DNA from: Chiloscyllium plagiosum
Taxonomy: Eukaryota
Assembly (NCBI RefSeq): GCF_004010195.1
Contig: NC_057753.1
Coordinates: 2,191,243-2,253,107, forward strand
DNA: 61,865 bases
Reading direction: 5' to 3'
Shown here: positions 25,622 to 55,111 of the stretch, one piece after another
How positions within the stretch are numbered: position 1 is the first letter of the stretch
Layout of the letters: the number at the start of each line of letters is the position of its first letter
The notes under the pieces: generated by a model
Seen by the model: only the letters and a program-made list of their open reading frames with translations
What the model was told of the DNA's origin: nothing
The model's database searches: none
Position numbers and translations under genes: made by a program

Positions 25622-25780
25622 GATTTAAAATCAGAGCAATCAAACATCCCGTCAGGATCCGACTGAGCCTTTGGAGTCATCTGGGATCTGGATATCTTTG
25701 GTATTTGACTTGGGGAGGAACAAGGTTGGTGTGTTCTACCTGTGAGCCTCAGAAATGGCTTAAGTTGAAAAGCAGCAAGA
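25622..25780 (+). pseudogene. Truncated ZNF-type exon relic (leader module plus a degenerate CxxC), followed by a CR1 fragment
   Basis: Acceptor TTTTGCAG at 25621. It translates NQTSRQDPTEPLESSG, like the leaders of both ZNF exons, then LVCSTC. No finger array follows. Confidence 0.45.
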
Positions 25781-26019
25781 AGTTAAAATTCCTGCCTTCG
25801 GCCACTCCTGCTCGATTCTGTGCCCTACACCTGAGGAAAGGGGGAAAAGAAGAAATTATGTTGGCCTTTGAAGAAACCTAGAAGAGATTTACCAAACTGC
25901 CATCTTGATTCCAGTGGTTAATTTATCAGAATTAAACAAATATGCCGGAAGGGCCATTCAGTCCATTGAATCTGACCTGCCTCTCTGGATAACAATCCAG
26001 TCTGTTTCTTTCAAGATTA

Positions 26020-26230
26020 GAGTGGTGCTAGAAAAGCACAGCAGGTCAGGCAGTATCCGAGGAGCAGAAAAATCGACGTTTCGGGCAGGAGCCCTTCATG
26101 ATTCCTGATGAATGGCTCCTGCCTGAAATGTCAATTTTCCTGCTCCTCCGATGCTGCCTGACTTGCTGTGCTTTTTCCAGCACCACAGCTCGACCTGAAT
26201 CTCCAGCAGCTGCAGTCCTCACTTTTGCCT
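26020..26230. mobile_element. Penelope-like terminal hairpin (inverted repeat)
   Basis: Arms at about 26022-26099 and 26105-26185 are reverse complements; CTGATGA...GAAA on the right arm. Confidence 0.8.
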
Positions 26231-26299
26231 TATAAAGTTATATAGTCACACCGCATGTTACAGTTCTTTAACAAGGGTAACTAATTAATTCGGCCTCTA

Positions 26300-26745
26300 A
26301 GTGGCTAGCAATGCTGCCTCACAGCAGCAGGGACCCAGGTTCAATTCCACCCTTGGGTGACTGCCTGTGTGGAGTTTGCACATTCTCCACATGTCTGCGT
26401 GGGTTTCCTCTGGGCACTCCAGTTTCCTCCCACAGTCCAAAGATATACAGGTCAGGGTGGACTGGCCATGCTAAATTGCCATCGAGAGTGTTGTGCTGGA
26501 AAAGCACAGCAGGTCAGGCAACATCCGAGGAGCAGGAGAATCAATGTTTCAGGCAAGAGCCCTTCATCGGGTATTGCTAAATTGCCCACACTGTCCAGGG
26601 ATGTGCAGGCTGGGTGGATTAGTCATGGGAATTATAAGGTTACAGGGAGAGACTGGAGGGGGGAAATGGTCTGCTTTTCAGAGGGTCATTGTGGACTCAA
26701 TGGGCCAAAAGGTCTGTTTCCACACTGTAGGGGTACTATGATTCT
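26300..26745 (+). mobile_element. V-SINE interrupted by a 94-bp PLE terminal module (26481-26574)
   Basis: The duplication TGCTAAATTGCC at 26469-26480 and 26575-26586 flanks the insert. Confidence 0.82.
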
Positions 26746-26799
26746 AATTGGAGGCAGCTTCTCTTTCACGCAACCCTGGGAGATCAAGCGCTGTCTGTC

Positions 26800-27255
26800 T
26801 TGCAGCTGCAGTTTCCAAGCCCTGCTATCTGCATGCCTCGGATGGATGGAAGAAAACAAGACCAGAAGAACAAAGGAAGAAAAGGTCAGAGGAACAGAAG
26901 GAAAGAAGAGGATGTGGATCAATGAAGAATGATGGTTCGAAGAAGCGATGGGCAACCAAAAAGGCCCAGTTCTGTGAAACGCAATTACTCCACACAACAG
27001 ACAGCAATCAGCCCGACAAATGATGGGGGGGGTCTGCTACTTATTCTCTTCCCTCTCTCATTAGAGGACTTGAAAAACGAATTCACCGCAAAACTGTCCA
27101 TCACAAAGCCTATCTCGAAATATTCAAGGAACGTTCTGGAAAAGTGGGTGACAGGGAGTTGGTGCGACCCATCAAGGAGGAAGAGGTTAAGACCAGCTTC
27201 AAAGAGATCGATCGCAAGAGTGCAGCCGGGCCAGAGAGGACGAATTTAATTGAAT
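26800..27255 (+). mobile_element. Decayed R2-like (RLE-class) non-LTR retrotransposon fragment
   Basis: Frameshifted KKAQFCETQLLHTTD ... LEDLKNEFTAKLS ... DRELVRPIKEEEVKTSFKEIDRKSAAGPE, resembling R2 RT motifs -1 and 0. Confidence 0.5.
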
Positions 27256-27569
27256 TAACTTTGTTGTCACATTTACCCACGGCAGTAAAGTGAAAAGTTT
27301 ACAAGTGGCCTCTTACGGCGCCATCTTGGGTACCAAGGTATCTCAGTACAGATACTTAAGTACAAATGCTTCAGGAAAAAAAGAAATTTAAAAAAAAAAT
27401 TAAACAGTCCAGCAATAATTTAGAAAAATAGAGAAATATGGGTTCGGAATAAGTCTTTCCAAACTAGACTGCTCTGGGCTTCACTTTGAGGGCAGGAGTC
27501 GGAGTCCACACTGAGGTTGGGAATCCACACTGGCTTTCACCCTGGACATAGCAAAACATTGTTGTTAGG

Positions 27570-27745
27570 TTTGTTCGATTATATGATTTCAGTTTCATCG
27601 CACTGTAATCTTCGGCAATAATTTCTATGCTTTATGATCTTACGCTCCACCACCGCCTGATGAAGGAGCAGCGCTCCGAAAGCTGGTGCTTCCAAATAAA
27701 CCTGTTGGACTAATAACCGGGTGTTGTGTGATTTTTAACTTTGAA
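27570..27745 (+). mobile_element. Penelope-like terminal repeat with hammerhead core
   Basis: CTGATGA-A-GGAGC-AGC-GCTCC-GAAAGCT at 27657-27684; same family as 5610. Confidence 0.7.
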
Positions 27746-28013
27746 TTTGTAATGGGAACAAGAGGAAAGTGTCTCGAACAGAACAGCAGCCTCGTTCATT
27801 TCGTGGGGCATCCATCGAAGGGTAGGAGCCCTTCGCCCAGGACATATGAAGACTCGCAATATGCCCGTCACTGGAACCACTACAAATCTTCTGCAACAGA
27901 TAGCCTGACTCGAGAACCTGAAGTAACTGCGGATGCTGGAAATCAGAAACGAAAACAGAAATTGATGGAGAAGCTGAGCAGGGGCTGGCAGCCTGTGTGG
28001 AGAGAAATCAGGA

Positions 28014-28049
28014 GTTAACTTTTCAGGTCCAGTGACCCTTCCTCAGAAC
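28014..28049 (-). ncRNA. Minimal hammerhead-ribozyme-like motif in a PLE terminus
   Basis: Reverse complement GTT-CTGAGGA-A-GGGTC-ACTG-GACCT-GAAA-AGTT-AAC. Confidence 0.5.
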
Positions 28050-28594
28050 ACTTTACAACTCGCTCAGCTAAGGCTGAGGATGTCTGATGCCATTCTGTAG
28101 GAGACAAGGTGAGGTGCTGACATATGGTAAGAAAATGGTGATGAGAGAAATTTTCTCAACCTTCTAAAATTTTGAAAACCATATAAAGCATATAAAATCA
28201 ATCAAAATGTTTTTGTGTAAAGGCAGTGAATAAGCTACCATTAAGGTATGAGATCATGGGTATTTTATTACAAGAGAGCATAAGTGGTGTTGTTATATAG
28301 TTGCAACAAAGAGCACATCAGTTTTAGTGGATTTCCTTGGACTAACAAACCAGAATGGAACTGCCTGGCTGTACATTTCCTTTGTTTTGAAGAACAGCAT
28401 GATTGGTGAATTGTCCCAGTCCTCGGGTTTCCCCTTAGATGACCCTCTTTCAACCAAGTGGCTGTGGCTTTACTATTTGGAACATTTTAAGAATGTTGAC
28501 TAACAAAATTAAGACTCTTAGAAAGCACCCTATGTGTGTAATTAAATAGCTATATTGTAGGACAGAGAACAAATCAAGATAAAATGAGGGTTTT

Positions 28595-28835
28595 TTAATT
28601 TATTCATGGGAAGAAGGTGTCGCTGGCCATGCCCAGTATTTATTGCCCATCTCTAATTGCCCGGAGGGCAGTTAGGAGCCAACTACATGGTTGTGGGTCT
28701 GGAGTCACATGTAGGCCAGACAAGGTAAGGATGGCAGTTTCCTCCTGTGAAGGACATTAATGAGCCAGATGTTTTGTTTTCCCAACAATCTACAATGGAT
28801 TCACGATCATCATTAAACCCTTAATTCCAGATTTT
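28595..28835 (-). mobile_element. Deu-SINE/SacSINE1-like fragment with LINE-derived tail
   Basis: CTGGAGTCACATGTAGGCCAGAC and TTTATTGCCCATC; a related copy lies at 39085-39230 (+). Confidence 0.55.
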
Positions 28836-28897
28836 ACACCCTTAATTGTGTAATTGTTAAGGCATGTAAAAAGATGGGTGATTCATCATGAGATTAA

Positions 28898-29209
28898 TCA
28901 TGGAATCCCGACAGTGTGGAAGCAGGCCATTCAGCCCATCAAGTGTACACTGACCTTCTGAAGAGCAACCCACCCATACCCTATAACCCTGCAGTCCCCC
29001 AGTCTGGCAATATAAGCAACATCACATGGTCAATCCACCTAACCTGCACATTTTGAGTTGTGGGAAGACATCAGAACACCTGAAGAAACCCTCACCGATA
29101 CAGGGAGAATGTGCAAACTCCAAACAGACAGGTGCCCAAGGATTGGAATTGAACCAGCATCCGTGGTGCTGTTAGGCAGCAGTGCTAACCACTGAACCAT
29201 TGTGCCACC
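28898..29209 (-). mobile_element. HE1-like V-SINE
   Basis: Similar to the other copies. Confidence 0.8.
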
Positions 29210-29711
29210 AGTTATGAATGACAAAGGGTAGATGTGGACAGGTTGATTCCCTTGTGGGTGAGAGGGCATTATTGCAGCGTATCCAAATTAGGACAGAGAT
29301 GAGGAGGAATCTCTTCTCTCAGAGAATTGTGAATCTATAAACATGTTTATTGCAGAGGGGTTGGAAGCTGGGTCATTGAGAATATTGAAGGCTGCGATTG
29401 ACTGATTTAATCAGAAAGGGAATCAGATGTTTTGACAAAATAAACCAGGAACGTGGAGTTGAGGATTATCAGATCATGGCTGATCTCATTGAATAGTGGA
29501 AGACAGTTCAAAACAGAATGTCCTACTTAACTAGTGATTTGTCTCTGAACAGTCTCCAATGCCAAAATATCTTTCCTTAGACAACGGGGCAAGAACTATT
29601 CATGGTATTCAAGCTGTGGTATAATTTGTGCTTTGTTACTGTTATCTAGGCTTTCCTATTTTATACTTCATTCTAATTCTCTGGGGTTTTTCCTGAGTCT
29701 AAGACAATTCT

Positions 29712-30230
29712 GGTCTCCTTCCTATCAGAAAAATGTTGTGAAACTTGAAAAGGTTCAGAAAAGATTTACAAGGATATTGTCATCGTAGGAGGATTTGAGC
29801 TATAGGGAGAGGCTGAACAGGCTGGGGCTGTTTACCCTGGAGCATTGGAGGCTGAGGGGGTGACCTTATAGAGATTTACAAAATTGAGGGGAATTGATAG
29901 GATAAATAGGCAAAGTCTTCTCCCTGGGGTTGGGGAGTCCAGAACTAGAGGGCATATGTTTAGTGTGAGGGGGAAAGAGACCTAAGGGGCAACTTTTTCA
30001 CGCAGAGGGTGGTAGGTGTATGGGATGAGCTGCCAGAGGAAGTGGTGGAGGCTGGTACAATTGCAGCATTTCAAAGGCATCTGGATGGGCATATGAATAG
30101 GAAAGGGTTTAGGGGGATATTGGCCAAGTGCTGGCTAATGGTACTAGATTAGTTTAGGATATCTGATCAGCACGGACAAGTTGGATGAAGGGTTTGTTTC
30201 CGTGCTGTCCATCTCTATGACTCTATGATC
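29712..30230 (+). mobile_element. CR1 3' end
   Basis: KLEKVQKRFTR...FFTQRVVGVWDELP, and a tail ending CTCTATGACTCTATGA. Confidence 0.85.
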
Positions 30231-30269
30231 CTTGGAAGATTATTACTGGTGCATCCGCGATCTCTAGAT

Positions 30270-30915
30270 AATGCCATTTCCTTTGTCTTCTCTATTTTCT
30301 GCTAAATCTGTGTTAACTTGCTGTGATTCATGCAGAACCACCCCTAAATCCCTCTGAACTTCAGCTTTCTGTATTCCTTTCCCGCTTAAATAATATTTAG
30401 CCCCTCTATTCTCCCAAAGCGTGTAAACTCACATTTTTGTATATTCCATCTGCATAGTTGTTACAAACTTATTTAACCTGTCTACTGTATACTTTTACAG
30501 ACTCTCTGTCAACCTTAGCACTTGCTTTCCCACCTATTTTTGTGTCATCCACAAAAGTGGTTGCAGAACATACATTTTCTTCACCAAAATTATGAATATA
30601 CTGTAAATAACTGTGGCCCTGACGCTGAACTGTAAGGCACACCATGAATTATAAGTTGCCATCTTGTAAATGCCATCCTTCTCCCATATCTCTATCTTCT
30701 ATTGATCAATTAATTCACTGACCATGCTAATATGCTCCATCCAACTGCCATGTATCCTTTTTAACAGAATCACCTGATATTTGGCCCTTATCAAACACCT
30801 TTCCTAAATCCAAATATATTATGCTTATTATCATTCGCTATTATGCTTAGTACCTCCTCAAAGAATTCTAATAAATTCATAAATTCAAGAAGTCACGCTG
30901 GCTCTGTGTGATTGT
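30270..30915 (-). mobile_element. Old CR1 RT fragment
   Basis: Degenerate DDTKIGG and VPxxSxxGP segments on the minus strand. Confidence 0.55.
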
Positions 30916-31093
30916 ATTTCAGATGAGGGGATAAGAGGAGTTCATCCCCGTGTGAAATAGTGATTGGCTGAATGTGATTAAAAGTCCTACCACACTCAAA
31001 GAGCTACTGTCAATTTCATAATGAGTTCAATGATTCCGATAGACTTTGATGTTGCTGTTCCCGACTGTAACTCCTGTACTTCCTAACCCTATT

Positions 31094-31825
31094 GGGGTGA
31101 CGCAGTGAGTCAGTGGTTAGCAGTATTGCCTCTCAGTGCCAGAGACATCGGTTCAATTCGAGCTTCAGACTGTCTGTGTGGATGTCTGCACATGCCCCAT
31201 GTGTATGTGTTTTTGCCTGCCTGCTCTGGATTCCTCCCACACTCCAAAAATGTGTAGGTTCGGGTGGATTGGGCACGCTAAATTACCCAAAGTGTCCTGG
31301 GATGTGTAAACACGGTGGATTAGCCTTGGGAAATGCAGGTTTACAGGGTTGGTGGGGGGGAGTGAGTTAGAACATAGAACAGTACAGCCTGCTTCGGCCC
31401 TTGATGTTCAGCTGATCTTTTACCGTACTCTAAGATCCAAACTATCCAATATACCCTTTGTTTTACTATGCTCCATGTTCCTACTAAAGAGTTGCTTAAA
31501 TGTCACTAATGTACCTGACTCTACTACTACCAATGGCAGTGCATTCCACACACCCACCACTCTCTGTGTAAAGAACCAGCCCTTGACATCACCACCAAAC
31601 CTACCTCCAATCACCTTAAAATTATGCCACCCCCATGATAGACATTTCCGCCCTAGCTGTTCACTCTAGCTATGCCTCTCATCATTTTGTACACCTCTAG
31701 CAAATCGCCTGTCACCCTCCTTTGCACCAATGAGAAAAGCCTTATCTCTCTAGTTGGGTGGGATGATCATCGGTGTGGACTTGTGGGCCAAATGGACTCT
31801 TTCCACACTGTCGAGGTCCTATGAT
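31094..31825 (+). mobile_element. V-SINE split by a minus-strand CR1 3' end (about 31369-31752)
   Basis: SINE body to about 31365, then CR1 FFTQRVVGVWNALP on the minus strand; the SINE tail resumes at about 31755. Confidence 0.75.
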
Positions 31826-31879
31826 ATTGTGTCAAAATTTGGCCACATCCATCCCTGTCGGTCCAGCATTGGCTGGATC

Positions 31880-32420
31880 TGTATTTGTGGAATATTTTTG
31901 CCCAAAAATGCATAACCCACCGTCATTCCACGCAAGATTCTGTAAATCCACTTTAGAAATAGAACCAGTATGACTCAAAATTGGGTTGCAGACTTTAACC
32001 TCACACCTTTAATGCATTGTTTGAGCTGAGATGACACCTTTTGTTAGAAATCCAGAAGGTATTTGAGAGTGACTTAAAAGGAGTTCTGTGACTTAGATAA
32101 TCATGAACCGAAGCTGGCACACGTATTCCAAAAGATGAAAGACTTCATCTAATTTTGTTTAATATATTTCAGCTGTAACCTTTTGCTATAAATTCTGTGC
32201 CTTATGGTCCTGCTCCACAACCATCTCATGAAGGGACAGTGCTCCGAAAGCTACTGCTCCAAATGAACCTTTTTTTCAGATTAGATTCCCTACAGTGTGT
32301 GATTTTTAACTTTGTCCACCCCAGTTCGACACCAGCACCTCCAAAGCATTCTAAAAGATGAAAGACTTAAGCTAAATTTGTTTAATATTGCTTTCCATGA
32401 CACTGCAAAACTTGACCACG
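31880..32420 (+). mobile_element. Penelope-like 3' fragment with mutated hammerhead core
   Basis: CTCATGAAGGGACAGTGCTCCGAAAGCTA at about 32225; matches 5500-5690. Confidence 0.6.
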
Positions 32421-32439
32421 TCCATCCCTGACTTTCCAG

Positions 32440-32910
32440 CAGCATTGAGCCAACTCACAGAGGAGAGCCTTGGCTGATTGACGGCACATTGTAGCCTATA
32501 GAGGGTGAAGGGGCGGGGAACGTCCTCCCGCCAATCGCAGTGAATGGGAGGCGGGGCTTGGTTCATAACACGTGAACTAAAGTGTCGTCACGTGATCTCC
32601 CCGCCATCACCGTGCGTCCGCGCAAGCGCCCTGCCGCTGCGCCTGAGGTCCGGGTTGAGCGCTGGAGGAGTGTTAATGTTGAAGGGTCGGGAAGGAAAGA
32701 AACGGCGAGAGTGCAGACCGAGAGGCTTCGCCAACACTCGGTGTAGGCCCCCGACCCGGACTGGAAGCTCCCGGTCCCTGGTTTGCAGGTGAAGGGAAAA
32801 CAGCTGCGGGCCCCGAAGAGGCGACAGGTCCCGGGGTTGCCGTCGCCATATTTGTCGGGGGCAATGTTGTACTGATTATGATGGGTGGCGCCATCTTTAA
32901 AGGGGGCAAG
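32440..32910 (+). promoter_or_regulatory. CpG-island promoter 2 with putative first exon (donor 32788|32789); candidate promoter of ZNF 46015-46887
   Basis: TGATTGACGGCA at 32475, CCAAT at 32531, GC boxes, CACGTG at 32569, GTCACGTGAT at 32587, a CAG|GTGAAG donor, and YY1-like GCCAT(A/C)TTT at 32845 and 32890. Confidence 0.75.
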
Positions 32911-33059
32911 TTGCAGCAGGGTGTATTTTGACTGGTAGGTGGAAGAGGAATGTTTACACACAGCAAACTCAAGCCAAGAGAAATGTATGTTTTTTTTGTA
33001 CAATTTCTACCCTGGACTGGCAATGATGGGATTTTTTTTTTGTAAACACCTTTTTACAG

Positions 33060-33171
33060 GATATTGGAATGAGGAGGATTTGCACATAGGAAAGTCGAAT
33101 CAAAAACTACATCAAGATCTGACAGTGTGGCTCGTCTTCTATCAGGAAGAGAAAAGGCCTTAAAAATTCAG
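33060..33171 (+). other. Putative 5'UTR exon 2 carrying the ZNF leader module
   Basis: TTTTTACAG acceptor and CAG|GTATGG donor. It translates EEDLHIGKSNQKLHQDLT, homologous to the leader at 55003-55111. Confidence 0.55.
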
Positions 33172-33429
33172 GTATGGGTGTAAGTGAACAAGTGCCAAGA
33201 TCTTCCATATCCTAGTTGGACCACACCAGGAGTTCTGGTGGTACTCCTGAGGAAGAATAGTCTGTATTGGCTTGAGAGGAAGCACAGAGCAGGTTTACCA
33301 GAGTGATGCCTTGACTCCCGGGGTTAGATTATGAGATATGGCTGCAAATGTGAGCCATAGTTATTAAATAGCTAAAATATTACCTCAGATTACAACAGAA
33401 TCTTGATCAGATGGGCCAATGGGCTGAGA

Positions 33430-35545
33430 AGTAGCTTGCTCTCTGTTGTCTTTGACCACTTCCGTGTGCTTGTTTTCGGGTAACAGCGCAGCTTCCTGAA
33501 CGGTAATAGCTGGCGGTTTGCCAGCTTCCAGTAACTGAACTGCACTGTTTTGGGGGAGTGTATTTGGATGGCTCGAATGTTGTCCTCTGGGTGACTGGAT
33601 CCATTTTACCTGAGTAGTGTCCCACTTTGTCTCTATGACATTACCTCTAGATTGATTGCCGTTGCTTTCACTGTGAAAGAGGTGAAAGGGCCTTTTCAGT
33701 GCTGATGCGGAGGCCAGTGTCTGTTTGATGTTGACACCTCCTGCTCAGCTCCCCAGTCGATCTTCTCTGAGCTAGCCTGTCACCCTTTGGTAAGGTCATG
33801 CAGGAGTCCAGCTAGCTCGCTATAATTCTTTACACAGCTACTGCAATAATTAAATAGTCCGAAGCTTTGTCTTGCGCCTTTAACAGTAACTTTTCATTTC
33901 TGGTGGAATGCTATGGTTGCCCCGTATTACTGTCCGTTGCTATGGCAACTGGCTGGAGCTTACTGTGCGCCTGTTGAAATCCTTGTCCTTGCATACCTTG
34001 ATGTAGGAACCAAATGTTTTCTGAGTTCTTATTGGGACAGTTCTTGGTGAAATGCCCATCGCTAATGCACACAAAACACACTCCCCTTTTTTTTCCTGTG
34101 ACCCACCGGCTCCCTTTACCAACTACTGCTGGTTTCTTAAGATTTCTATTTCCTGCATCATCGCCCAATTGAATACTTCCTTAATTTGTGTATGTGTTTT
34201 TTCATCCTCCAGTTCTCTCTCCACAATTACTTTTCCCAGTAGCATTGAAATAGCATCAAATGTAGACCCAAAATTTCTAAAGAAAATATCCATCCATTCC
34301 ACGCTACGCAGAATGGGTTAGTTAATATTGATTTACTAAAGATTCCAAAGGAGGTGGGTGTAAACTCTTAATTACATCATCCATCACTCCTCCTCCTGCA
34401 AGAACATAAATGTTACACTTTAACAGAAAAAAGAACACCACCTGTGTTAAATTTGCCTTTTCCAATTCCTCCATGAGGTTCCTCAGATTTTAGACCATAC
34501 CATCGGAATTGTGTTCAGAGAATTAAGTTTCCAAGATACCAAATTTCCTATTATTGGCATTCTTTCACATCAAAGTACCTTTCCAATGAGCAAATCTCAT
34601 GTGTTAAAGTTCATTCTGGCCAGAAAACGAAATTCCAAACACGGTAATTTCTGAAACTAAACTTTACCCAAGTGCAAACACAACACAGAGCCAATTCTAA
34701 AAGATTTTTTTACCAAGCTTTCCCGAATAGACTTTTAAAATCAACATTTCGTTGCTGACTTCTGCTTTGCACAATCACTGATAGTTTCTTGACCAGACAT
34801 TACGTTAACCATACATGTCCCAGACTTAAACAGGTAGAATATACTTTTAAATCACCCATTTGCATATTGGGAACATATGAACTTCAAAGCATTCGCCATA
34901 TCTCTAGCTCCAGGGAATAAAAAACACACAAATTGCACAGGATAACATTTAGGAACCAACAAACCAAGGTGCATTCAAACCAGACCACAAAGAGTTAACC
35001 CTTCTACAAAGTTCAGTGAACTAGCAGAGAATCGGGGTTGCTCTTTCTCTCTCTCGCTCTCACACTTCTGAATGCTGCAGCTTGTTTCTGTGTTTTTTTA
35101 AAACGCTTAGTCAGCAGAATGGACTAGTCTGAACACCACGCCGCTTGCCCACAGTCCTTCCCTGCCATTTTCCCATACTCTCGTTCTTTTAACGTCCCAC
35201 TTCTCTCACGCCAAGAGACTTCTTGCTCCCACCCACTTTTCTCCTCCTTTTCGCGCCTCTTAGCACCAGGACCCACAACCTCTTTTGTTATTTTCATTCC
35301 TCCTATTCACAACCCCTTTCACTATTCCTGTGACCGGACCCCCCCTTTCTTGCTCCAATTTAAGTTTGTTTTGTGCTGTGGCTTATAGAAACCCCCGCCA
35401 CCAAATGTCACATGAACTAAAAGGGTGGTAAATAAACATACTCCCCCAAATCGTGGCCCAAGGTGTGCTGGCTTCAGGCAGATCACCCTGCTCGCAGCAC
35501 CAATCTATTGGAGCGTACCTCCCGACCAGGACAAAGACTGAGGAT
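33430..35545 (-). mobile_element. Decayed LTR retroelement 5' portion (LTR end, PBS, gag zinc knuckle, protease relic)
   Basis: On the minus strand, ...TGTGACA (35412-35406) is followed by PBS-like TGGTGGCGGGGG. CFVCISDGHFTKNC (CX2CX4HX4C) at about 34040-34085; DTG motif at about 33715. Confidence 0.7.
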
Positions 35546-35998
35546 AATAGAATCCCTACAATGTGAAAACAGGCCCTGTGGCCCAACAAGTCCACACTGA
35601 CCCCTGCGAAGAATAACCCACCCATACCCACCTCACATTTATCTGAATTAAACCCCATCTGGTCAACATCCCGTTGTAATCTGAGGTAACCTTCTTCACT
35701 GTCCACGACACATCCAATTTTGGTGTCATCTGCAAACTTACTAATTACAAACTATGTTTACATTGAAATCATTTATATAAATGATGAAATGTAGAGGACC
35801 CAGCACCGATCCTGTGACACTCCACTGGTCACAGGCCTCCAGTCTGAAAAACAACCCTCCACCACCACCCTCTGTCTTCTACCTTTTGAGCCAGTTCTGT
35901 ATCCAAATGGCTAGTTCTCCCTGTATTCCATGAGATATAACCTTGCTAATCAGTCTCCCATGGGGAACCTTGTCAAACGCCTTCCTGAAGTCCATACA

Positions 35999-36702
35999 CA
36001 GGGGAACCTCTGATCCGAACATGATGGGTGGGCATGATTTTGTTCGGATAATTGTTTATTCGGTTAATCGATTTAAATGCCTTTCCTCTGGGACTCGGAG
36101 TTTTTAAAAGTCTGCTCCCCGTTCAGGAGACTACAGCAGCACACAGCATGCGACCCCCTGTCCCCCAACCCCGTGCGACACCGTCCCCTGCCTCCCCAAC
36201 GCTGTGCAACACCTCCCCCGCCTCCTGACCCCGGGCCACACCGTTTCTCCTCCCACCCGCCTCCTGACCCCGTGCCACTCCGTTCCCCCCTCCAACATCT
36301 CCCCTGCCCCCAAAGCCGGCCACCCCGTCCCCCCTCCTCCGGGACAGCTGGTCTGGACACCAGCCACAAGATTGCTGCTGCCTTTGTGGGGTAAGTCTCC
36401 AAATAAAGTGCACACACACGTAGCCACAGCCACACAGACAACGTTTTGACAGGTTCCACCTTTGCCCTGTACGGACAATGTTGGAGAGATTATGTGGGGG
36501 ATTGGATTTAGGGTTCACCCCTGTGTAGAACTCCAGGGAAAGTGTGGGGGGAGAGAGAGAGAGGGCGGGAGGTCAGTCATTTGGAGACGGTGCCTGTTTA
36601 ATCACTGTAAACAAAAGTCGCTATCACTGTTGGAAACACATCTTTGATGTAATGTTTCCATCATGACCTCGAGATCTCCTTCGGATAATCGAGGGTCCTC
36701 TG
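35999..36702. mobile_element. Tc1/mariner-pogo (Tigger-like) non-autonomous DNA transposon inserted in CR1
   Basis: Termini CAGGGGAACCTC ... GAGGGTCCTCTG followed by TA. The CR1 sequence is contiguous across it. Confidence 0.75.
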
Positions 36703-44470: not shown

Positions 44471-44743
44471 ACTTAGTTTGTTTCTTAAACGTTTTGTACT
44501 TAATCTGTAAATCTTTCCCCTGTTTACCATCAATCTGCAATGACATGTAATGCCGAGTCAAATAAGTAGCTGTCCCCAACCAATGAACGTGAGGGACAGC
44601 TGTGATGTCACACTTTTGTGCCGGCCCCCTGATCCTGGGCTTCAGTTTATCCCGTTAAGAAACCTTACAAGCTGAGAGCTAAAAAAACAAATCTCTTCCC
44701 CTCTTTACTGATTTCCCACCTTGCCACTCAAGTCCCCAAGCTA

Positions 44744-44915
44744 CAGGGGAACCTCAATTATCCGGCATTCGCTTATCCGAATGTCAGATTATCCAGCAAG
44801 ATCTCGAGGTCCCAATGCACGGCTAAACTGTGTAATCTGGCATTCGGTTATCCGGAATTCGATTAACCGAACAAAATGCCCCCGCTGTGTCGCTCAGATA
44901 ATCGAGGTTCCTCTG
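44744..44915. mobile_element. 172-bp Tigger-like MITE, same family as 35999-36702
   Basis: TA|CAGGGGAACCTCAATTATC ... GATAATCGAGGTTCCTCTG|TG terminal inverted repeats. Confidence 0.8.
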
Positions 44916-44947
44916 TGTGTACTCACTTGGTTGTGTCCGACTCTGTC

Positions 44948-45197
44948 GAGAGTGTGATGCTGGTGAAGCTCAACAGGTCAGGCAGAATCGCCGTTTGGGA
45001 CAAAAGCCATTCTTGATGAAGGGTTTTTACCCAAAAGATTGATTCTCCTGCTCCTCAGGAAAATCAGGAGTTTCATCAGGAACGACTTTTGTCCGAAACA
45101 GCAATTCTCCTCCTCCGATGCTGCCTGACCTGCTGTGCTTTTCCAGCACCACGCTCTTCACTCTGATCTCCAGCATCTGCAATGCTCGCTTTCTCCA
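44948..45197. mobile_element. Rearranged PLE terminal hairpin fragments
   Basis: GATGAAGGGTTTTTACCC and CTGCCTGACCTGCTGTGCTTTTCCAGCACCAC. Confidence 0.65.
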
Positions 45198-45247
45198 TGT
45201 GTCCTACTCTGGCTCAGTGGGAGAGTGTTCAGAATGGTCAACATTTG

Positions 45248-45553
45248 GATTAGATTCCCTTCAGTGTGGAAACGGGCCCTTCGGCCCAACAAGTCCACAC
45301 CGACCCTCTGAAGAGTAATCCACCCAGACTCATTTCTCTATGTTTACTTCTGACTAATGTACCTCACACAATGGGCAATTTAGCAAGGCCAAGCCACCTA
45401 ACCTGCACATCTTTGGACTGTGGGAGGAAACCGGAGCACCCAGAGGAAACCCACGCAGACACTGGGAGAATGTGCAAACTCCACACAGACAGTCACCCCG
45501 AGGCTGGAATCGAACCCGGGTCCCTGGCGCTGTGAGGCAGCAGTGCTAACCAG
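45248..45553 (-). mobile_element. HE1-like V-SINE
   Basis: Similar to the other copies. Confidence 0.88.
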
Positions 45554-46014
45554 TGGGTCACCGTACAGCCTGCTCTCTGCTTTTCCACTCAGTGCCTCTC
45601 TTTACCAGGCTGAAATATCTTTGTGTCGCAAACTCAATGCGGCCTTTCCACTGTCTGAGATCTATGCACATTAACAACAAGCGTGAGGTCTCTGCTGGAT
45701 CCCTGACATCCAGCAATGACAGCAGTTACCAAGATCAGCTACCCTGTTCCTTCTGTGTTGTGTGGATAGAAGGTTTAGGAGAGCCTGTCTGAGTAGCTGC
45801 ATAAAATCCTTCTTCTCCACCTTCTGTTATCCTCTCTCCCTCTCCCAACCCCCCCTCAGTCTTGCTAAACTGACTTCCTGTGTTTTTTTTTGGGAGGGGT
45901 TCTTTTTCATTCTGTTTTCTTTTCCCTGTTTTCTATTGGCAAAGGAGCATTTGCCGTCCGGAGACCCGAGCCAAACGTCCCGTCGGGATCTGATTTGCCG
46001 AATGTCTTGGGATC

Positions 46015-46887
46015 ATGAACACAGAGGTAACCAGCACTGCTCAAGGCGCAGAGAAACCGTACACGTGTTCCGTATGTGGACGAGCCTTCAGCCGGTCGTC
46101 TGGCCTCTCGAAACATAAATGCAGTCGCGATGGGGAGAAACGATGGAAATGTGGGGACTGCGAAGAGGGGTTCAGGTATCCCTCCCAGCTGGAAACGCAT
46201 CGACGGACTCACACAGGGGAGAGGCCGTTCATGTGTTCCATCTGCGATAAGGGATTTGCTCGGTCCTCTGACCTGCTGAAGCACCAGCGGGTTCACACCG
46301 ACGAAAGACCTTTCAATTGCCTGGACTGCAGCAAGTGCTTTAAATGCTCCGGTGACCTGATACGCCACCAACGCGTTCACTCCGAAGAGAGACCGTTCCG
46401 GTGTTCTCGCTGCGGCTCTGGCTTCAGGCGGTCCTCTCACCTCACCGTGCACCAGCGTGTGCACACCGGGGAAACGTTTGCGTGCTCTGAGTGCGGGAGA
46501 GCGTTCACTCGGCCGTCCAACCTGCTGAAGCACCAGCAGTTTCACACGAGGGAGAAGCGGTTCACCTGCCCGGAGTGCGGGAAGGGTTTCCCCGAGTTAT
46601 CGATCCTGCTCCGACACCAGCACGCTCACGTGGGAGAGAAGCTGTTCACCTGCTCGGTGTGTGGGAAGGGATTTAGACGGTCGTCCAATCTGTTGACGCA
46701 CCAGCGGGTTCACACTGGTGAGAAGCCATTCACCTGCCCGGAGTGTGGCAAAGGGTTTACTGAGTTAGCCACCCTTCAGTCGCACCACCGCGTTCACACT
46801 GGGGAGAGGCCATTCATCTGCTTTGAATGTGGCAAGGGATACACTCGGTCATCGCACCTGCTGAGACACCAGCAAGTTCACAAATAA
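46015..46887 (+). CDS. Tandem C2H2 zinc-finger protein (290 aa; 1 degenerate + 9 canonical fingers; no KRAB/SCAN/BTB visible)
   Basis: Uninterrupted ORF with CxxC-x12-HxxxH repeats and TGERPF/TGEKPF linkers. It is preceded by a polypyrimidine tract and an AG acceptor at 45943-45944. Confidence 0.93.
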
Positions 46888-47097
46888 TGGCAGAGATTGG
46901 ATTTTGCTGTTAATTGCGTCCAAAACGGAATTGAATCGATGAAACAGCCACATCGTAGAAATGATCAAAACAAAATTGCACGCCCCTTTTCCCGTGAGGG
47001 AGAGGGGCTTGGGTCTCGCACTAGAGATTCAAACTTGTTCTAACAAGGGGGTGGCCAACAGAAATGGAAATCAAGTTAAGATAGGTTAAGGTCAGAG

Positions 47098-47319
47098 TGG
47101 ATTAGTGGTGCTGGAAGAGCACAGCAGTTCAGGCAGCATCTGAGGAGCAGTAAAATCGACGTTTCGGGCAAAAGCCCTTGGTCAGGAATACATTCCTGGT
47201 CAAGGGCTTTTGCCCGCAACGTCGATTTTACTGCTCTGATGCTGCCTGAACTGCTGTGCTCTTCCAGCACCACTAATCCAGAATCTGGTTTCCAGCATCT
47301 GCAGTCATTTGTTTTTACC
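47098..47319. mobile_element. Near-perfect PLE terminal hairpin with a 14-bp flanking duplication
   Basis: Arms 47098-47189 and 47192-47280; TAAGGTCAGAGTGG at 47087 and 47320. Confidence 0.85.
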
Positions 47320-48072
47320 TAAGGTCAGAGTGGTGCTGGAAAAGCACAGCAGGTCATCCGAGGAGCAGCAAAATTGACTTTTCGGGCAAAAGCCCTTCAT
47401 TAGGAATGAGGCTGGGAGCCTCCGGGGTGGAGAGATAAATGGGAGGGGGGGAATGGGGCTGGAGGGAAGGTAGCTGAGTGTGCAATAGGTGGATGGAGTT
47501 GTGGGGTTAAAGATGATAGGTTGGAGAGGAGGGTGGAGCGGATCGATGGGAAGGAAGATTGACAGGTAGGACAGGTCATGAGGGCGGTGCTGAGTTGGAA
47601 GGTTGGAACTGTGGTAAGGTGGGCGGTAGGGGAAATGAGGAAACTGGTGCCACATTGATGCTCTGGGGTTGGAGGGTCCCGAGGCGGAAGATGAGATGTT
47701 ATTCCTCAAGGTGTTGGGTGGTGAGGGAGCGGTGGTGGAGGAGGTCCAGGACCTGCATGTCCTCGGCAGAGTGGGAGGGGGAGTTGAAATGTTTGGCCAC
47801 GGGGCGGAGGGATTGTTTGGTGCGGGTGTCCCGGAGATGTTGTCTGAAGGGGGCGTGGACCTGACCAAGTACCTAACAGCCCACCATACCTTCCCGGAAA
47901 CTTCCCCTGCCACTGCAGGAATTGCAAAACCTGTGCCCATACCCCCCCCCCCCACCGCTGTCCAAGGCCCCAAAAGTGCCTTCCACATCCATCAAGGTTT
48001 CACCTGCACTTCCAAACGTCATTTACTGTATCCATTGCTCCCAATGGGGTCTCCTCTACATTGGGGAGACTG
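47320..48072. mobile_element. Penelope-like fragments in both orientations (GIY-YIG region)
   Basis: Minus-strand 3' end to about 47850. Plus-strand FHIHQGFTCTS..IYCIHCSQWGLLYIGET. Confidence 0.8.
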
Positions 48073-48077
48073 GACTT

Positions 48078-48635
48078 GCTTAGGCCACTTTTGTAATATT
48101 CTGTGCAATTCTGGTCTCCTTCCTATTGGAAAGGTGTTGTCAAACTTGAAAGGGTTCAGAAAAGATTAACAAGGATGTTGCCAGGGTTGGAGGATCTGAG
48201 CTATAGGGAGAGGCTGAACAGGCTGGGGCTGTTTGCCCTGGAGCGTCGGAGGCTGAGGGGCGACCTGATAGAGGTTGACAAAATTGAGGGGCATGGATAG
48301 GATAAATAGACAAAATCTTTTCCCTGGGGTCATGGAGTCCAGAACTAGAGGGCATAAGTTTAGGGTGAGAGGGGAAAGATATAAAGGAGACCTAAGGGGC
48401 ACCTTTTTCACGCAGAGGATGGCACGAGTATGGAATGAGCCGCCAGAGGAAGTGGTGGAGGCTGGTACAATTGCAATGTTTAAGAGGCATTTGGATGGGT
48501 ATATGAATAGGAAGGGTTTGGAGAGATATGGGCTGGGTGCTGGCAGGTGGGACTAAATTGGGTTGGGATATTTGTTGGCATGGACGGGTTGGACCGAAGG
48601 GTCTGTTTCCATGCTGTACATCTCTATGACTCTAC
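48078..48635 (+). mobile_element. CR1 3' end
   Basis: QFWSPSY..KLERVQKRLTRMLPG; tail ending CTCTATGACTCTA. Confidence 0.9.
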
Positions 48636-48754
48636 GGATGCCTACTCGCAGAGCGCTTCAGAGTGAGGAAAACGATGGTTGATCCACTGCTAAGTCAACC
48701 CGAAGAATTAAATAATGGATAACGAGGAAATGTTGAATCTGTCTTTGTTGGGTG

Positions 48755-48970
48755 TTGGCTAGCTGAGTTGGCTGGATGGCTGGTCTGCAATTCGGAGCGA
48801 TGCCAACAAATGGGTTCAATTCCTGCCCCAGCTGTGGTTCCTATGAAGGATTTTCTGTCTCAATTTCTCCCCTCACGTGTGAAATGGTGAACCTCAGGTT
48901 AAACCACTGCCAGTCGTCTCGCGCTAATGAGAGAGCAGCCTTGTGGTCCAGTAAAACTACAGTGACTTGA
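48755..48970 (+). mobile_element. Second tRNA-derived SINE family (not V-SINE)
   Basis: TGGCTAGCTGAGTTGG A-box-like and GGGTTCAATTCC B-box, followed by a distinct body. Confidence 0.5.
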
Positions 48971-48987
48971 GCTTAACATTCAAATGC

Positions 48988-49266
48988 GATGGCTCAGTGG
49001 TTAGCACTGCTGTCTCACAGCACCAGGTTCGAATCCAGCCTCTGGCGACTGGCTGTTTGGAGTTTGCGCATTCTCCCCGCATCTGCATGGGTTTCCTCCC
49101 ACAATCCAAAGTGCAGGTCAGGTGAATTGACCGTGCTAAATTGACGATAGTGTCAGGTGCATTAGTCAGAGGGAAATGGGTCTGCGTGGGTTACTCTTTG
49201 GAGGGTCGGTGTGGACTGGTTGGGCTGAAGGGCCCGTTTCCACACTGTAGGGAATCTAATCTAATC
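48988..49266 (+). mobile_element. HE1-like V-SINE
   Basis: Head, V-domain and tail. Confidence 0.82.
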
Positions 49267-49399
49267 AAACCAATGAGATGGTGCAGTTTGAATCAACATT
49301 AATATGGAAACCAAATTAGTTTGAGAGCAAGAAGCCGAGAATAGGGATAACTGGATGGCTTTTGGGTGAGTGGGCTTAAATAGTGTAGGATTTATCCTT

Positions 49400-50170
49400 C
49401 ATTCCTGCTCTTTCTCATCTCCATGCTACATGAGGTGACATTGTCCAAAGGCACTGTTATTTTTCCCATGTACACTGGCAATGCCTAGTTCTACCTCCCC
49501 ACCATCCTTCTCTCCATTCCTCTAACTGTTAGTAAATTATCTAACCTCCTAATGCCGAATCCAGTGCAGGTCTTGAGCAGACATTTACTCCATTGACAAA
49601 TTGGGATGATCAAACCAGTTGTTTATTTGCCACAGCATATTCAGTTCCATGTCTACCCCTCCCTCTGGGATCTGACTGAGGCTGAACCACACAGCTCACA
49701 ATCTCTGTGGCATGTATGACTCGAGATGTATTTCTGACCATATGTTCACAGTCACTGACCGCAGCTATTTTAATCTTGGCAATGTCCCCTATTTCCTGCA
49801 CCATCCCATCTGCTGCTTAGAGCCTCATACGTGCCTGTGTTAACTTTAGACTAGACAATTCCAATGCATTCCTAACTAGCTTCAGGTTCACACAGCCAGA
49901 AACATACAATCATCCAAAACTCTAGTTGTCCATGTGCTAATCCTGTCCACCCATTTGGCCACAGTGAGGCCAAAGAAGTCTGAAATTGTAAAATGTGCAC
50001 CCTTGTTTTCAAATTCCACTGAGGCCTTGCTTATCTCTGTGATCTCCACTTGTATAACCCTCTGAGATATCAGCCCTTTTGAGTCTCCTTATTTCACGCT
50101 GTCATTGGTGGCTGTGCCTGAATGTAAAACTCTGATATTCGATTCCTGAGCCCCTTCACCTCTGTCCCGG
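49400..50170 (+). mobile_element. Old L2-clade LINE 3' fragment
   Basis: Degenerate YADDTQLYL-like and LIRACVNFRLDNSNAFL (LIHAFVTSRLDYCN-like) segments. Confidence 0.65.
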
Positions 50171-50849
50171 ACAAAGCAGTCTTTACGGTGAAGTGTCTCT
50201 CCTAGCAATGCCCGCTCAGACTCCAGTCACGTGCTGCTTCATGAAATGTCTCTGCAAGGCCTTGCAGCCTTTGATCGCATTTGGCGTGTTGCATAAAGAA
50301 AAACTGTTACTGTTTGACAACATCGGTTTGTTGGCAGCAACATACCACAAACGGGCGATCAGATGGGTGGCTGGTGCATCAGTTCCTTTGGTGGCGTTGG
50401 TTAAAGCATGATTGTTGGTCAAAGCATGATTGTTGGTCAGTCTGCACCAGAAGAACTCCCCTGTGGACAGTGTTTGTCGCTGTTGTGGTCTTCTGAACTG
50501 TCGGATCTGCAGTTACCTTTGAAGAAGTGGAGTCTGGGATTATTTCCTCTTTTGTCGGCCAAGGAGGAACAGGGTACTCGTTTGAACGGTTGTTGAATAC
50601 TGGAGCAGGCTGGAAGGGCTAAATGGCAAACTCCTGACCCCTCTTGTTTTTTTTTTAAACACTTGTGTTTCACTGATTCCTATTTGAAGTGGTTTCTGCA
50701 CTAAATGGTTTTCAATGAATATCGATCTCAATGTAGTAACTGGAGAAAAAGTTGCAAAATTAAATGAATTCTGAAAGAGAGAGTTTTTTGGTGCTCATTT
50801 TGTACCTATCTCACCTTCATAATATCACAAAATGATTCTTTTCAAAAAA

Positions 50850-51727
50850 TTGTTCACTCGTGGGGGTCACTGGCTCACCAGTGTTTTATTCCTCATTCCT
50901 AATTGCTTGTGAGAAAATGGTGATGAGCTGCCTCTTGAACCCCTGCACTCCACATGCTGTCAGGTTTTTAAAAGATTAGATTAGATTCCCTACACTATGG
51001 AAACAAGCCATTTGGTCGAACCCAAGCAGACCCATTTCCCCCCTACCCTATATTTCCCTCAGCCGAATGCATCTAACACTTACGGACAATTTAGCATGCC
51101 CAGTTCACCTAACCTGCATGTCTTTGGATTGTGGGAGGAAACCGGAACACCCAAAGGAAACCCACAGAGACATGGGAAGAATGTGCGAACTCCACACAGA
51201 CAGTCTCCCTGAGGCTGGAATTGAACCCTGGTCCTATGAGGCAGCAGCGCTAACCACTGAGCCACCGTGCTGTCACGGTGACCCACTACATCCTGAGAAA
51301 GGGAATTTCAGGATTTTAACTCATGAATAGCAAGTCAGGATGGTAATAGCCTTGGTGAGGAACTTGAAGGTGCGGGTGGACCTATGCATCTACTTCTCAG
51401 TAGAGGTTATGAGGTGTGAAATCTTTGGTGAATTTTTGCAGTGCATCCTGCTGCTACTGCACATTGGTGATGAAGAGAATGGGTGCTTGTGGGATTGGTG
51501 CCAGTCAAGTGTGATGCTTTGGCCTGAATGGTGTCAAGCTTCTTGGCTGTTGTTCGAGCTACACCCATCTAGGCAAATGGGGAATATTCATCACACTCCT
51601 GACTTGTGCCTTGCAGGTTGTGGATAGGCTCTGGGGAGATGGGCTATTCATCACATAATTCCTAATCTCTGACCTGCTCTTGTAGCTACTGTGCTTATTT
51701 GGCAAGTCCAGTGAGTTTCTGGTCAAA
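50850..51727 (-). mobile_element. L2/CR1-group LINE 3' end interrupted by a V-SINE (50974-51272, -)
   Basis: Minus-strand KAQVRSVMxYSPFA..KKLDTIQ-like segment. Confidence 0.65.
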
Positions 51728-51729
51728 AC

Positions 51730-52292
51730 GTGTGGCGCTGGAAAAGCACATCAGGTCAAGCAGCATCTGAGAAGCAGGAAAATCGACATTTCAGGCATAA
51801 NNNNNNNNNNNNNNNNNNNGGGGGGGGGAGGGGAGATGAGGAAACTGGTGAAATCTACTTTGATGCTGGGAAGAGACAGTGCATTATCCTCTGCTATTTC
51901 CACCACCTACAATCTGACCCCACCACCAGAGATACATTTCTCTCCCCAACCCTATCAGTATTTCGCAGAGATCATTCCCTCCTCGACTCCCTTGATAGGT
52001 CCACGCCTCCCCATGAACCCACCCTCCACTCCTGGCATCTTCACTTGCCACTGCAAGAGGTGTAAAACCTGTGCCTACACCCCCCTCACCTTCATCCGAG
52101 GCCCTAAAGGATCTTTCCATGTCTGGCAGAGATTTTTCCGCACATCCAAACACCTCATCTACCATGTCTGTTGTTCTCACTGTGGTCTCTTCTGCATTGG
52201 AGAGACAGGACACCAACTTGCAGAACGTTTCAAGGAACATCTCTGTAGGACACACACCAAATAACCTCCCCCTCCCAATCCTGTAGCTGAGA
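51730..52292 (+). mobile_element. Penelope-like GIY-YIG fragment
   Basis: PGIFTCHCKRCKTC..LIYHVCCSHCGLFCIGETGHQLAERFKEHL. Confidence 0.8.
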
Positions 52293-52579
52293 TGACTGAA
52301 CTTCAACAAACACAAACATCTTCCTGTATGCCAGGTATGACTCAAACCAGTTTGCCGCGGATACCTATTGATTTCAGTTTTGCTCCTTGATGCCATACTT
52401 AAGGATTCACAGATAATATTAAAGTTTCAAAAGAAAAAAATGTGAAGAGGCAAATTAAACTAAATGGAACAGTTGAGAACAGTGACTTAAGAATGTATGG
52501 TCACAATCTTTGAAAGTGATAGAACAAGTTAGTCAAGCTGCTTGAAAAAAAATTAAATGCACAGGGTCCTCCAATTTAT

Positions 52580-53066
52580 TAATTGTGTGCAATTCTGATC
52601 TCCCTCCTACAGGAAGGATGTTGTGAAACTTGAAAGGGTTCAGAAAAGATTGACAACGGTGTTGTCAGGGTTGGAGGATTTGAGCTATAGGGAAAAGCTG
52701 AACAGGTTGGGACTGTTTTCCCTGGAGCATAAGAGGATGAGGGGTGACCTTATAGAGTTTTATAAAATCAAAAGTGGCATGGAAAGGCTAAATAGACAAG
52801 TCCTTTTTCCTGGGGTGCGGGAATCCAGAACCAAAGGACATAGGTTTACGGTGAAAGGGGAAAGATTTAAAAGGGGCAACCTTTTCACACAGACGGTGGT
52901 GCATGTATGGAATGAGCTGCTAGGGGAGGTGGCGGAGGTTGGAAAAATTCCAATATTTAAAAGGCATCTGAATGGGTATATGAATAGGATGGATTTGGAG
53001 GGACTAAATTAATATAGGATGTCTGGTTGGCATGGACGTGTTGAACCAAAGGATTTGTTTCCATGC
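52580..53066 (+). mobile_element. CR1 3' end
   Basis: ORF 52623-53012 KLERVQKRLT...WNELL. Confidence 0.88.
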
Positions 53067-53122
53067 CTCTTAAGACATAATTAATCTTGACAAATCACTG
53101 ACTGATTCTCAGCTGAAACATT

Positions 53123-53475
53123 GGGCGGCACGGTGGTACAGTGGTTAGCACTGCTGCCTCACAGCGCCTGAGACCCGGGTTCACTTCCCGCCTCAGGCGA
53201 CAGCGCCTGAGACCCGGGTTCACTTCCCGCCTCAGGCGAGTGACTGTGTGGAGTTTGCACGTTCTCCCCGTGTCTGCGTGGGTTTCCTCCGGGTGCTCCG
53301 GTTTCCTCCCACAGTCCAAAGATGTGCAGGGTCAGGTGAATTGGCCATGCTAAATTGCCGTAGTGTTAGGTAACGGGTAAATGTAGGGGTATGGGTGGGT
53401 TTCGCTTCGGCGAGTCGGTGTGGACTTGTTGGGCCGAAGGGCCTGTTTCCACACTGTAATGTAATCTAATCTAAT
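53123..53475 (+). mobile_element. Young V-SINE with an internal 39-bp tandem duplication
   Basis: 53161-53199 is identical to 53200-53238. Confidence 0.92.
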
Positions 53476-53774
53476 TGTGCACAACTCTTGCGGCCCAGTG
53501 TTTTGGAGTGATATTTGGGCCTTGTATGGACAACTTCCCAGAACATCACCAGAGACAAGGGCTTTCAGTTTTAGTGGAGAGACTGCGATTCCTCTGCTCA
53601 GACAGGGAAGGTGGAGAAAAGTAGGTTCAAATATTTGCAGGAGCATTACCCCACCCGGGGAGAAATGGATTGGATTGTCACGATAATTGTTGCACGCACA
53701 AGCTAGCTTTAAGAGAATGGGGTGAAGGTGAGGAGAACCATTGTGCATTGCCCAGTTTCCATGATCAGCAATAC

Positions 53775-54370
53775 AATAACTTCCCAATAGGGCAGTCTCT
53801 CAGCCAATAAGGAAGCTTTCGGATTCAGTCCCGCCCTTCATTCACTCCCATTGGATCGAAGACCAACTGCTGAATTTGGCCCTCCAGCATGGTGCCCACT
53901 TCCTATTGGTCAGGCCTTGCCGTCAATCAGCCGGTACTGCCCCGTAGGCGTGGGCATGCGCGGTGCCGGTGTGTCGCTCCGTTCGGCAATGCGCATGCGC
54001 GGTTGCCATTTCTCCGCAGGCTGAGGGTCGTCGGTGTCGTTTTTTATGGATCGCAAAAGGTGAGAGTCAGGGTGAGAAGGTGGAGCGGTAGACAGGCAGC
54101 GGGTGGGCGGAGAGGATTAGGCAAGCGCCTTGGGTCAGCCGCAAACTCTGAAAAGAGCCCACCTCACCCCGCCTCCCTCCTTCCTTTGCACCAAACGGAA
54201 AAAAGGCGCCAGACTTCCTCCCGGTGGAGACAGCAGCCATCTTTGTTAGGGGCAGTGCGCAGCGGAGGAATGTCGCGTGTGTGCCGTCATTGTTAGGGGC
54301 CATCTTTGTTGGGGGCAAGGTTTGGAATGACTGGGCGGAGCTTGCTGCCCATTGTCCCAAATGGAGGCAT
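53775..54370 (+). promoter_or_regulatory. CpG-island promoter 3 with first exon (donor 54059|54060) of ZNF 55112-55987
   Basis: Four CCAAT/ATTGG boxes, GC box at 53829, TGCGCATGCGC (NRF1-type) at 53990-54000, an AAG|GTGAGA donor, and three YY1-like motifs at 54236-54317. Acceptor at 55002. Confidence 0.8.
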
Positions 54371-54532
54371 TGTCCATTCAACCTTGTCTATTGGCCTCTC
54401 ACACCCAGTGTTTTTTCCATGAGCCACAGCCAGAAAAGGAAGAGAAATCCTGCTTTGCAAATTCCATTTCCTCAGGTTTTCCTGATGATCCCACAAGTTA
54501 ACAAGAGTTACAACAAGAACGAGAATCGCTGA

Positions 54533-54823
54533 AGTGTGGAAACAGACCCTAAGGCCCAACAAGTCGACACCAACAGTGCAGAGGGTATCTCACCCAGGAC
54601 CCACTTCCTATAACTCTACATTTACCCCTGACTAATTCACCTGACCTACACATCCCCAAACACTACAGGCAATTTAGCACAGTCAGTTCACCCTAACCTG
54701 CACATGTTTGGACTGTGGGAGGAAACCAGAGCACCCAGAGCATACAATTGTCCTGAGGCTGGAATTGAACCTGGGTCCCTGGCGCTGTGAGGCAGCAGTG
54801 CTAGCCACTGAGCCACCATGCCG
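54533..54823 (-). mobile_element. V-SINE in intron 1 of the second ZNF gene
   Basis: Similar to the other copies. Confidence 0.8.
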
Positions 54824-55111
54824 TCCAAAGAGAAAACAAAAATTTTGACAGCACTTCTGATAATGCCCACTCTCCCCTAGCACTTACCCTCAGACAGTGC
54901 CTGTTCTCAGTCTGTGATGACACTCCAACAATGTAGTCACTCCATTTCACAGCTTTTCTGCATCTCTCACTCACTTACTGCTCTTTTCACTTGGTGAAAT
55001 AGGGTGTTTGAAAGGGAAGACCTGCAGTCAGGAAATTGAAACCAAGCATCACATCAGGATCTGACAGAGTCGTTCAATGTAGCATAACCTGAATTTCATC
55101 GGATTTGGAAC

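Follow-up and report, generated by a model that had tools for sequence, protein, structure and literature searches.

A repeated segment in front of shark zinc-finger arrays: probably an ordinary untranslated leader with exon-duplication relics

Zinc-finger (ZNF) genes of the polydactyl C2H2 type may consist of tandem finger arrays without a KRAB, SCAN or BTB effector (Liu et al. 2014, PMC3971581); those carrying KRAB occur in clusters of duplicating units with partial or dead relatives. Lineage-specific expansion together with a short common sequence before the finger array is described for the FiNZ-ZNF genes of cyprinids (PMC10547256) and the KRAB-like ZNF genes of actinopterygians (PMC11603059); FiNZ is a conserved coding domain of 28 amino acids on its own upstream exon (PMC10547256). 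For cartilaginous fishes, loss of KRAB-box families is reported (PMC8455134). Here, a stretch of 61,865 nt from the shark Chiloscyllium plagiosum (contig NC_057753.1, positions 2,191,243 to 2,253,107; hereafter the window, numbered from its first base) is considered, in which a segment recurs behind candidate splice acceptors of ZNF units. In a large family of shark genes, this segment forms the first 109 bases of the terminal ZNF exon; it displays no selection at the protein level and, judged from sequence, most probably acts as an ordinary 5′-untranslated leader passed on when genes and exons were duplicated.

The window is rich in repeats and contains two C2H2 open reading frames (ORFs; 45994-46887 and 55088-55987), each an array of 10 finger-pattern matches in one exon, as well as CpG islands near 25.0-25.7, 32.3-33.0 and 53.8-54.3 kb; tblastn within the window found no finger remnants outside the two ORFs. 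Together with their paralogs these genes form a cluster of many units, some dead and others partial (broken copies among loci L001-L021, an orphan promoter at 25.2 kb), in which they resemble the KRAB-carrying clusters; there, however, the genes have KRAB, whereas the common front part of the shark genes is apparently untranslated and is itself duplicated within a gene. The genes match the ZNF-only type of tandem C2H2 cluster in that no effector domain is apparent upstream, the start appears to lie inside the finger exon, and the models of other sharks share no upstream domain. The account of ZNF-only genes mentions, as far as its available part goes, neither sharks nor a common leader (Liu et al. 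2014, PMC3971581). Unlike FiNZ (PMC10547256), the shark leader resides on the finger exon and lacks selection at the protein level; no named protein of a bony fish was among its matches. A limited literature search found no account of this shark leader.

The original prediction had placed one module behind the AG of five candidate acceptors, at 25622, 32939, 33060, 45945 and 55003. Coordinates, AGs and peptides were correct, and four of the segments are real copies. Of the six pairs among these full copies, four scored above every one of 1000 dinucleotide shuffles, and 13 and 25 of 1000 reached the scores of the remaining two; a leader profile built without the window genes matched at 55003 (E 8e-28), 33069 (7e-12), 25620 (6e-10) and 45934 (7e-8) and gave no match in 1.1 Mb of reversed loci, so that the similarity, which had been put forward for checking, is significant. 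The fifth segment is just a weak 5′ half-copy of the leader with counterparts in paralogs: 32939 reached E 0.19 on the leader profile, and its score was equalled by 0 of 1000 shuffles against 33060, 36 against 55003 (weak), 906 against 25622 and 419 against 45945. Two copies come in addition to the five: a further half-copy around 25506-25560 and, on the opposite strand (minus), a relic at 31075-30980 (E 6e-5).

Alignment of the paralogs defines the leader as the 109 nt from the AG to the ATG at the front of the terminal zinc-finger exon. Its description as a module with the acceptor as its edge is not confirmed, because homology runs at least 80 nt into the intron and also covers the whole promoter; the acceptor is thus no boundary of similarity. 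An intron-only profile had no window match at E 1, and the intron homology therefore rests on the full alignment. Neither are all acceptors equivalent, as 45945 seems to have a substitute AG, some 10 nt into the leader, in place of a deleted original.

A DNA search of the genome with 55003-55102 yielded 21 genomic matches, mostly directly upstream of intact or broken ZNF starts. For the wider sample, loci were chosen by the ZNF protein start and not by the leader: 150 matches were merged and small contigs dropped, which left 110 loci of 10 kb; with the window, these hold 112 ORFs of at least four fingers, mostly on two contigs (C44 and C45). The segment lies within 900 nt upstream of 95 of the 112 (E < 1e-3, best reversed control E 0.5), as scanned with a seed of 19 loci that overlaps some of the tested genes. 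The repeated leader is a real but ordinary feature of the family, accompanied by exon-duplication relics.

Four clusters were obtained from 136 leader copies. Class A comprises 65 copies followed by the family ATG, with a derived class-A group of 13 copies devoid of it; class B comprises 48 copies followed by a dead finger, 21 with their own array close behind and 27 without; in the fourth cluster, 10 copies mostly end in a donor at the position of the old start codon (stand-alone leaders at L060, L066, L067, L075, L101, L032, L064, L053 and L029). Of the window copies, 45945 and 55003 belong to class A, 25622 and 33060 are relics of class B, and 32939 is the half-copy. A promoter profile made from nine other loci (promoter, half-copy, class-B copy and LINE-like tail) matches the window at 25252-25874 (E 1.3e-55) and 32623-33281 (E 3.5e-94), and with its promoter part only at 54075 (E 5.8e-9). 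This shared match makes 25622 and 33060 homologous positions of duplicated gene fronts and gives 32939 its twin near 25506. Among 26 promoter units outside the training set and with a downstream ZNF exon, a leader copy intervenes in 14 and none in 12, the 54-kb unit being one of the latter. In a tree of 73 of the 136 copies (140 columns), all class-B and donor-bearing copies fall on one side, together with eight class-A rows; the classes are poorly resolved, and the order of duplication is therefore inferred. A stop shared by class-B genes after the dead finger was counted by regular expression in only two of six, yet three proteins of other sharks end there.

These relations would be explained by an ancestor with promoter, exon 1 and a single exon of leader and fingers. 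The front of that leader-finger exon would have been duplicated more than once, so that a unit may hold a half-copy, a class-B copy near the promoter and a class-A copy farther off. In genes of class A, the copy near the promoter would then have lost its fingers; where it kept its acceptor and gained a donor it is predicted to form an extra untranslated exon, and often it may have been lost entirely. Reuse of the leader as a stand-alone exon of the 5′-untranslated region (5′UTR) is supported indirectly, by the class of 10 copies mostly with donor and by gene models of other sharks. In three predicted models (XP_078426599.1, XP_038643830.1 and XP_072362365.1; P0131, P0127 and P0134) one leader directly follows another in a different frame, as splicing of a stand-alone copy to the ZNF exon would predict.

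Coding tests covered those 46 of the 95 genes in which the AG is aligned and an ATG opens the finger ORF. Leader lengths modulo 3 are distributed 19/14/13; 37 of the 46 have a stop in the ATG frame, and phase and open frame are both kept in five. Indels that are multiples of three amount to 16 of 65 in the leader and 21 of 102 in the intron versus 5 of 6 in the coding sequence (CDS). Measured against the class consensus, the ratio of nonsynonymous to synonymous change (pN/pS) is 1.02 for 41 class-A and 1.26 for 21 class-B leaders; the first 60 coding nt have a value of 0.64 and no stops, and stops are gained in the leader at the background rate. Relative rates, for 33 of the 46 genes (four near-duplicate or atypical ones dropped by hand, the rest for a non-canonical first finger), are 1.58 for the intron, 1.13 for the acceptor, 0.95/1.26/1.13 for the three positions of the leader and 0.48/0.63/1.18 for those of the CDS. 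The predicted frame independence and the non-coding status of the leader are thus supported by the comparison of selection with frame that had been suggested: indels are frame-blind, stops are common, and pN/pS is around 1 or above. Both window examples hold on re-reading, 55003 being in frame with the ZNF ATG yet with two stops, and 45945 being shifted in frame relative to the ZNF ORF.

Two ways of translating the leader nonetheless were considered and rejected. Stop-codon readthrough does not fit, with stops spread over 15 of 36 codon positions, all three types represented, and indels that break the frame. A conserved ATG in exon 1 that feeds the leader could be imagined at 54046, where, by the donor at 54059, an upstream ORF of 16 codons (54046-54059 plus 55003-55039) in the ZNF frame would arise; the promoter profile of the paralogs displays neither this ATG nor this donor. 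The donor near 32789, which had been proposed at 32788, is likewise missing from the family promoter profile.

The start context is well conserved, bases -7 to -1 before the ATG being kept in 33-39 of 41 genes. Where the family ATG is lost and finger 1 kept, seven of seven genes have an in-frame ATG inside the leader, versus 10 of 48 genes that keep the family ATG (p 1e-4; the genes are related, and survivors are selected). The seven are L027, L038, L045, L054, L067 and L115, and the window gene starting at 46015. The seven replacements argue for a start of translation in the finger exon, with the leader providing a short N-terminus in some cases. Translation thus likely begins at the conserved ATG right behind the leader, or at a replacement ATG within it. 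In a sawshark gene (P0128/P0151), too, the family ATG is gone and the leader is open. At 46002, 13 nt before the ZNF start, an out-of-frame ATG opens an overlapping ORF of 38 codons (46002-46118); this ZNF exon is CpG-rich.

Some observations weigh against a wholly ordinary untranslated leader. In the finger frame, the consensus of class B stays open over 36 codons, and that of class A contains a single stop; identity is higher in the leader than in the intron next to it (0.633 vs. 0.501); the class-B leader is slightly above the dead finger behind it (0.75 vs. 0.71); the per-site identities of the two classes are correlated (rho 0.28, p 0.003); the AG is preserved in 23 of 27 and in 9 of 10 relics, although these had been collected with the leader profile; and the tree separates the classes poorly, class A needing four changes. 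Mild constraint on the leader could be the cause, or alternatively mutation context.

The open consensus would be accounted for if the leader were what is left of an N-terminal spacer or effector peptide that was once coding and died out, before sharks radiated, with the takeover by an internal ATG. Such a history concerns the origin of the leader and agrees with the untranslated reading on its present state; we regard it as somewhat doubtful. An open frame of this length has a chance of about 9% from the shuffled stop rate and is a hint only; stops in the ATG frame number 59 versus 98 in shuffles, with related rows; dead fingers lie within the leader of class-B genes; and many predicted proteins of other sharks read the leader open, having been selected by the peptide profile. 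The pN/pS of about 1 or above and the neutral gain of stops speak against a peptide, as do the searches for one. None of 14 open leader peptides matches any Pfam family; their profile retrieved 27 proteins among 1.84 billion, of which 23 are named, all from sharks (nine species including a sawshark), and four lack a name (one of them a spurious repeat); named matches from ray, chimaera or bony fish are absent from those 27. In 26 scanned proteins retrieved by the leader profile, Pfam reports finger-type families only, and the upstream parts of 16 leader-bearing shark proteins share no domain, nor anything but the translated end of the intron. With the first 60 residues of the 55-kb ORF as query, a protein search gave mainly FEZF proteins and a single ZNF from a shark; with a leader-open paralog as query it gave no match.

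What has been described for effector domains was not encountered here. The leader does not form a separate upstream coding exon, being contiguous with the finger ORF in class A and frame-free in the stand-alone copies; an open frame with purifying selection on the peptide is lacking; and similarity to KRAB, FiNZ or KRAB-like domains was seen neither with Pfam nor with the protein profile, FiNZ being set apart by its description and not by direct alignment. The decayed N-terminal effector peptide of the original prediction thus finds no backing in selection during the family radiation, in Pfam, in non-shark homologs or in a common upstream domain. A coding ancestry older than the family radiation is possible.

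The same prediction had offered, as its other choice, a cis-acting RNA element. That the leader holds selected exon-definition enhancers near the acceptor, or a translational control, and for this reason survives as stand-alone exons, is improbable in our view. It would agree with the leader being slower than the intron and with slow sites common to both classes, with the 10-copy class whose donor mostly replaces the old start, with relics in the 14 of 26 units, and with 51 ATG triplets versus 88 in mononucleotide shuffles. The comparison with the intron is, however, noisy owing to pyrimidine runs; new upstream ATGs number 21 observed versus 25.8 expected, and many large deletions are tolerated. 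The nucleotide core, taken for specially conserved, does not stand out: its identity exceeds that of the remaining leader only slightly in class A (0.77 vs. 0.74; 8 of 84 windows are equally high) and not at all in class B (0.75 vs. 0.75). Identity of the whole leader, 0.633 (0.602-0.664), is close to that of third positions (0.598) and four-fold sites (0.577; 0.511-0.647); the leader diverges at about the synonymous-site rate. The mean folding z of 62 leaders is 0.14, RNAalifold placed no consensus pair in 25 leaders, and Rfam had no match in the window, which leaves neither conserved pairing nor a known family as would mark a structured cis-regulatory RNA. A dedicated conserved element is not upheld by a sequence with near-synonymous rate, no structure and no standout core that is often lost.

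A stretch of about 55 nt, comprising the 3′ end of the class-A leader together with the start region, resembles an abundant shark SINE, presumably a V-SINE (equalled by 1, 2 and 73 of 1000 shuffles in three scorings; 8.1 bits). Exaptation of a transposable-element fragment is nevertheless very unlikely: the likeness is post hoc, borderline and outside the predicted core, it is weaker in class B (19, 13 and 187 of 1000), and among the loci examined the copies sit in ZNF units and are not dispersed.

The preferred reading, an ordinary leader multiplied by gene and exon duplication, leaves of the original interpretation the frame independence and the stand-alone reuse, finds no support for effector peptide or RNA element, and adds a simpler cause which the prediction did not contain. 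One might go further and speculate that shark ZNFs lost an N-terminal effector before the shark radiation, and that the dead spacer became a weakly selected reservoir for exon definition and start codons, was copied into separate 5′ exons and has been taken up again and again as a new protein N-terminus; quite improbable as this is, it would, if true, represent a route by which effector-less ZNF families regrow heads. For annotation and family history, the genes examined point to a shark ZNF expansion without coding head, in which the leader may explain spurious N-terminal extensions of gene models and can serve as a marker to find and class these genes. A coding ancestor or selected element, if shown, would have implications for the use of KRAB-less ZNFs in cartilaginous fishes.

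Along the plus strand of the window, unit 1 opens with the family promoter and exon-1 region at 25252-25483, a CpG island with a GCCATCTT motif at 25439 (which we take to be a YY1 motif) and without a ZNF exon of its own. It is followed by the half-copy at 25506-25560, aligned in the promoter profile (E 0.97 by itself), and by the promoter-proximal relic at 25622-25746, which has internal deletions, leads into the start of a dead finger and clusters with class B (class-B profile 25551-25746, E 7e-19). The stretch 25100-25880 thus is a complete family promoter and gene front lacking its own ZNF exon, either a dead gene or an alternative promoter for the 46-kb exon. Unit 2 has its promoter and exon-1 region at 32621-32905, which likely drives the ZNF exon at 45945. 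Behind it lies the half-copy at 32939-32990, a doubtful mini-exon with weak pyrimidine tract and a donor not conserved in most paralogs, and the relic at 33060-33171, a candidate stand-alone 5′UTR exon with a putative donor after 33171 (the same donor-like motif occurs in L051, L054 and L107). A LINE-like fragment at 33190-33281, common to paralogs, adjoins the relic; the end of the promoter profile matches LINE copies of the window, and the fragment likely marks the old truncation of the class-B finger array. The ZNF exon of this unit begins with a shortened class-A leader of 70 nt (45945-46014) and continues with the ORF 46015-46887, whose new ATG lies two codons 5′ of the lost family ATG. 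In unit 3, the promoter-associated region (54075-54297) is separated from the ZNF exon by a 605-nt interval without leader copy or class-B relic; the full-length class-A leader (55003-55111), with in-frame stops at 55037 and 55085 that recur at the same codon positions in 13 and 10 of 41 paralogs, precedes the ORF 55112-55987, which starts from the family ATG.

On the minus strand, the decayed class-B relic at 30980-31089 adjoins a SINE, faces away from the 32.6-kb CpG island and has no family promoter on its own strand. The unit-1 promoter is abutted by a minisatellite of about 40 copies of a 102-103 bp unit (19661-21615 and 22845-25096), interrupted by an inserted element. Outside the window, about 250 nt of dead fingers lie between leader and later start in class-B genes such as L040, L082 and L099; in L005 (1600-1700) a LINE insertion cuts the ZNF exon just past the start codon, so that only the leader remains. 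At L111 (about 5500-5770, minus strand), the unit containing GCCATCTT is tandemly amplified about sevenfold in the first intron region.

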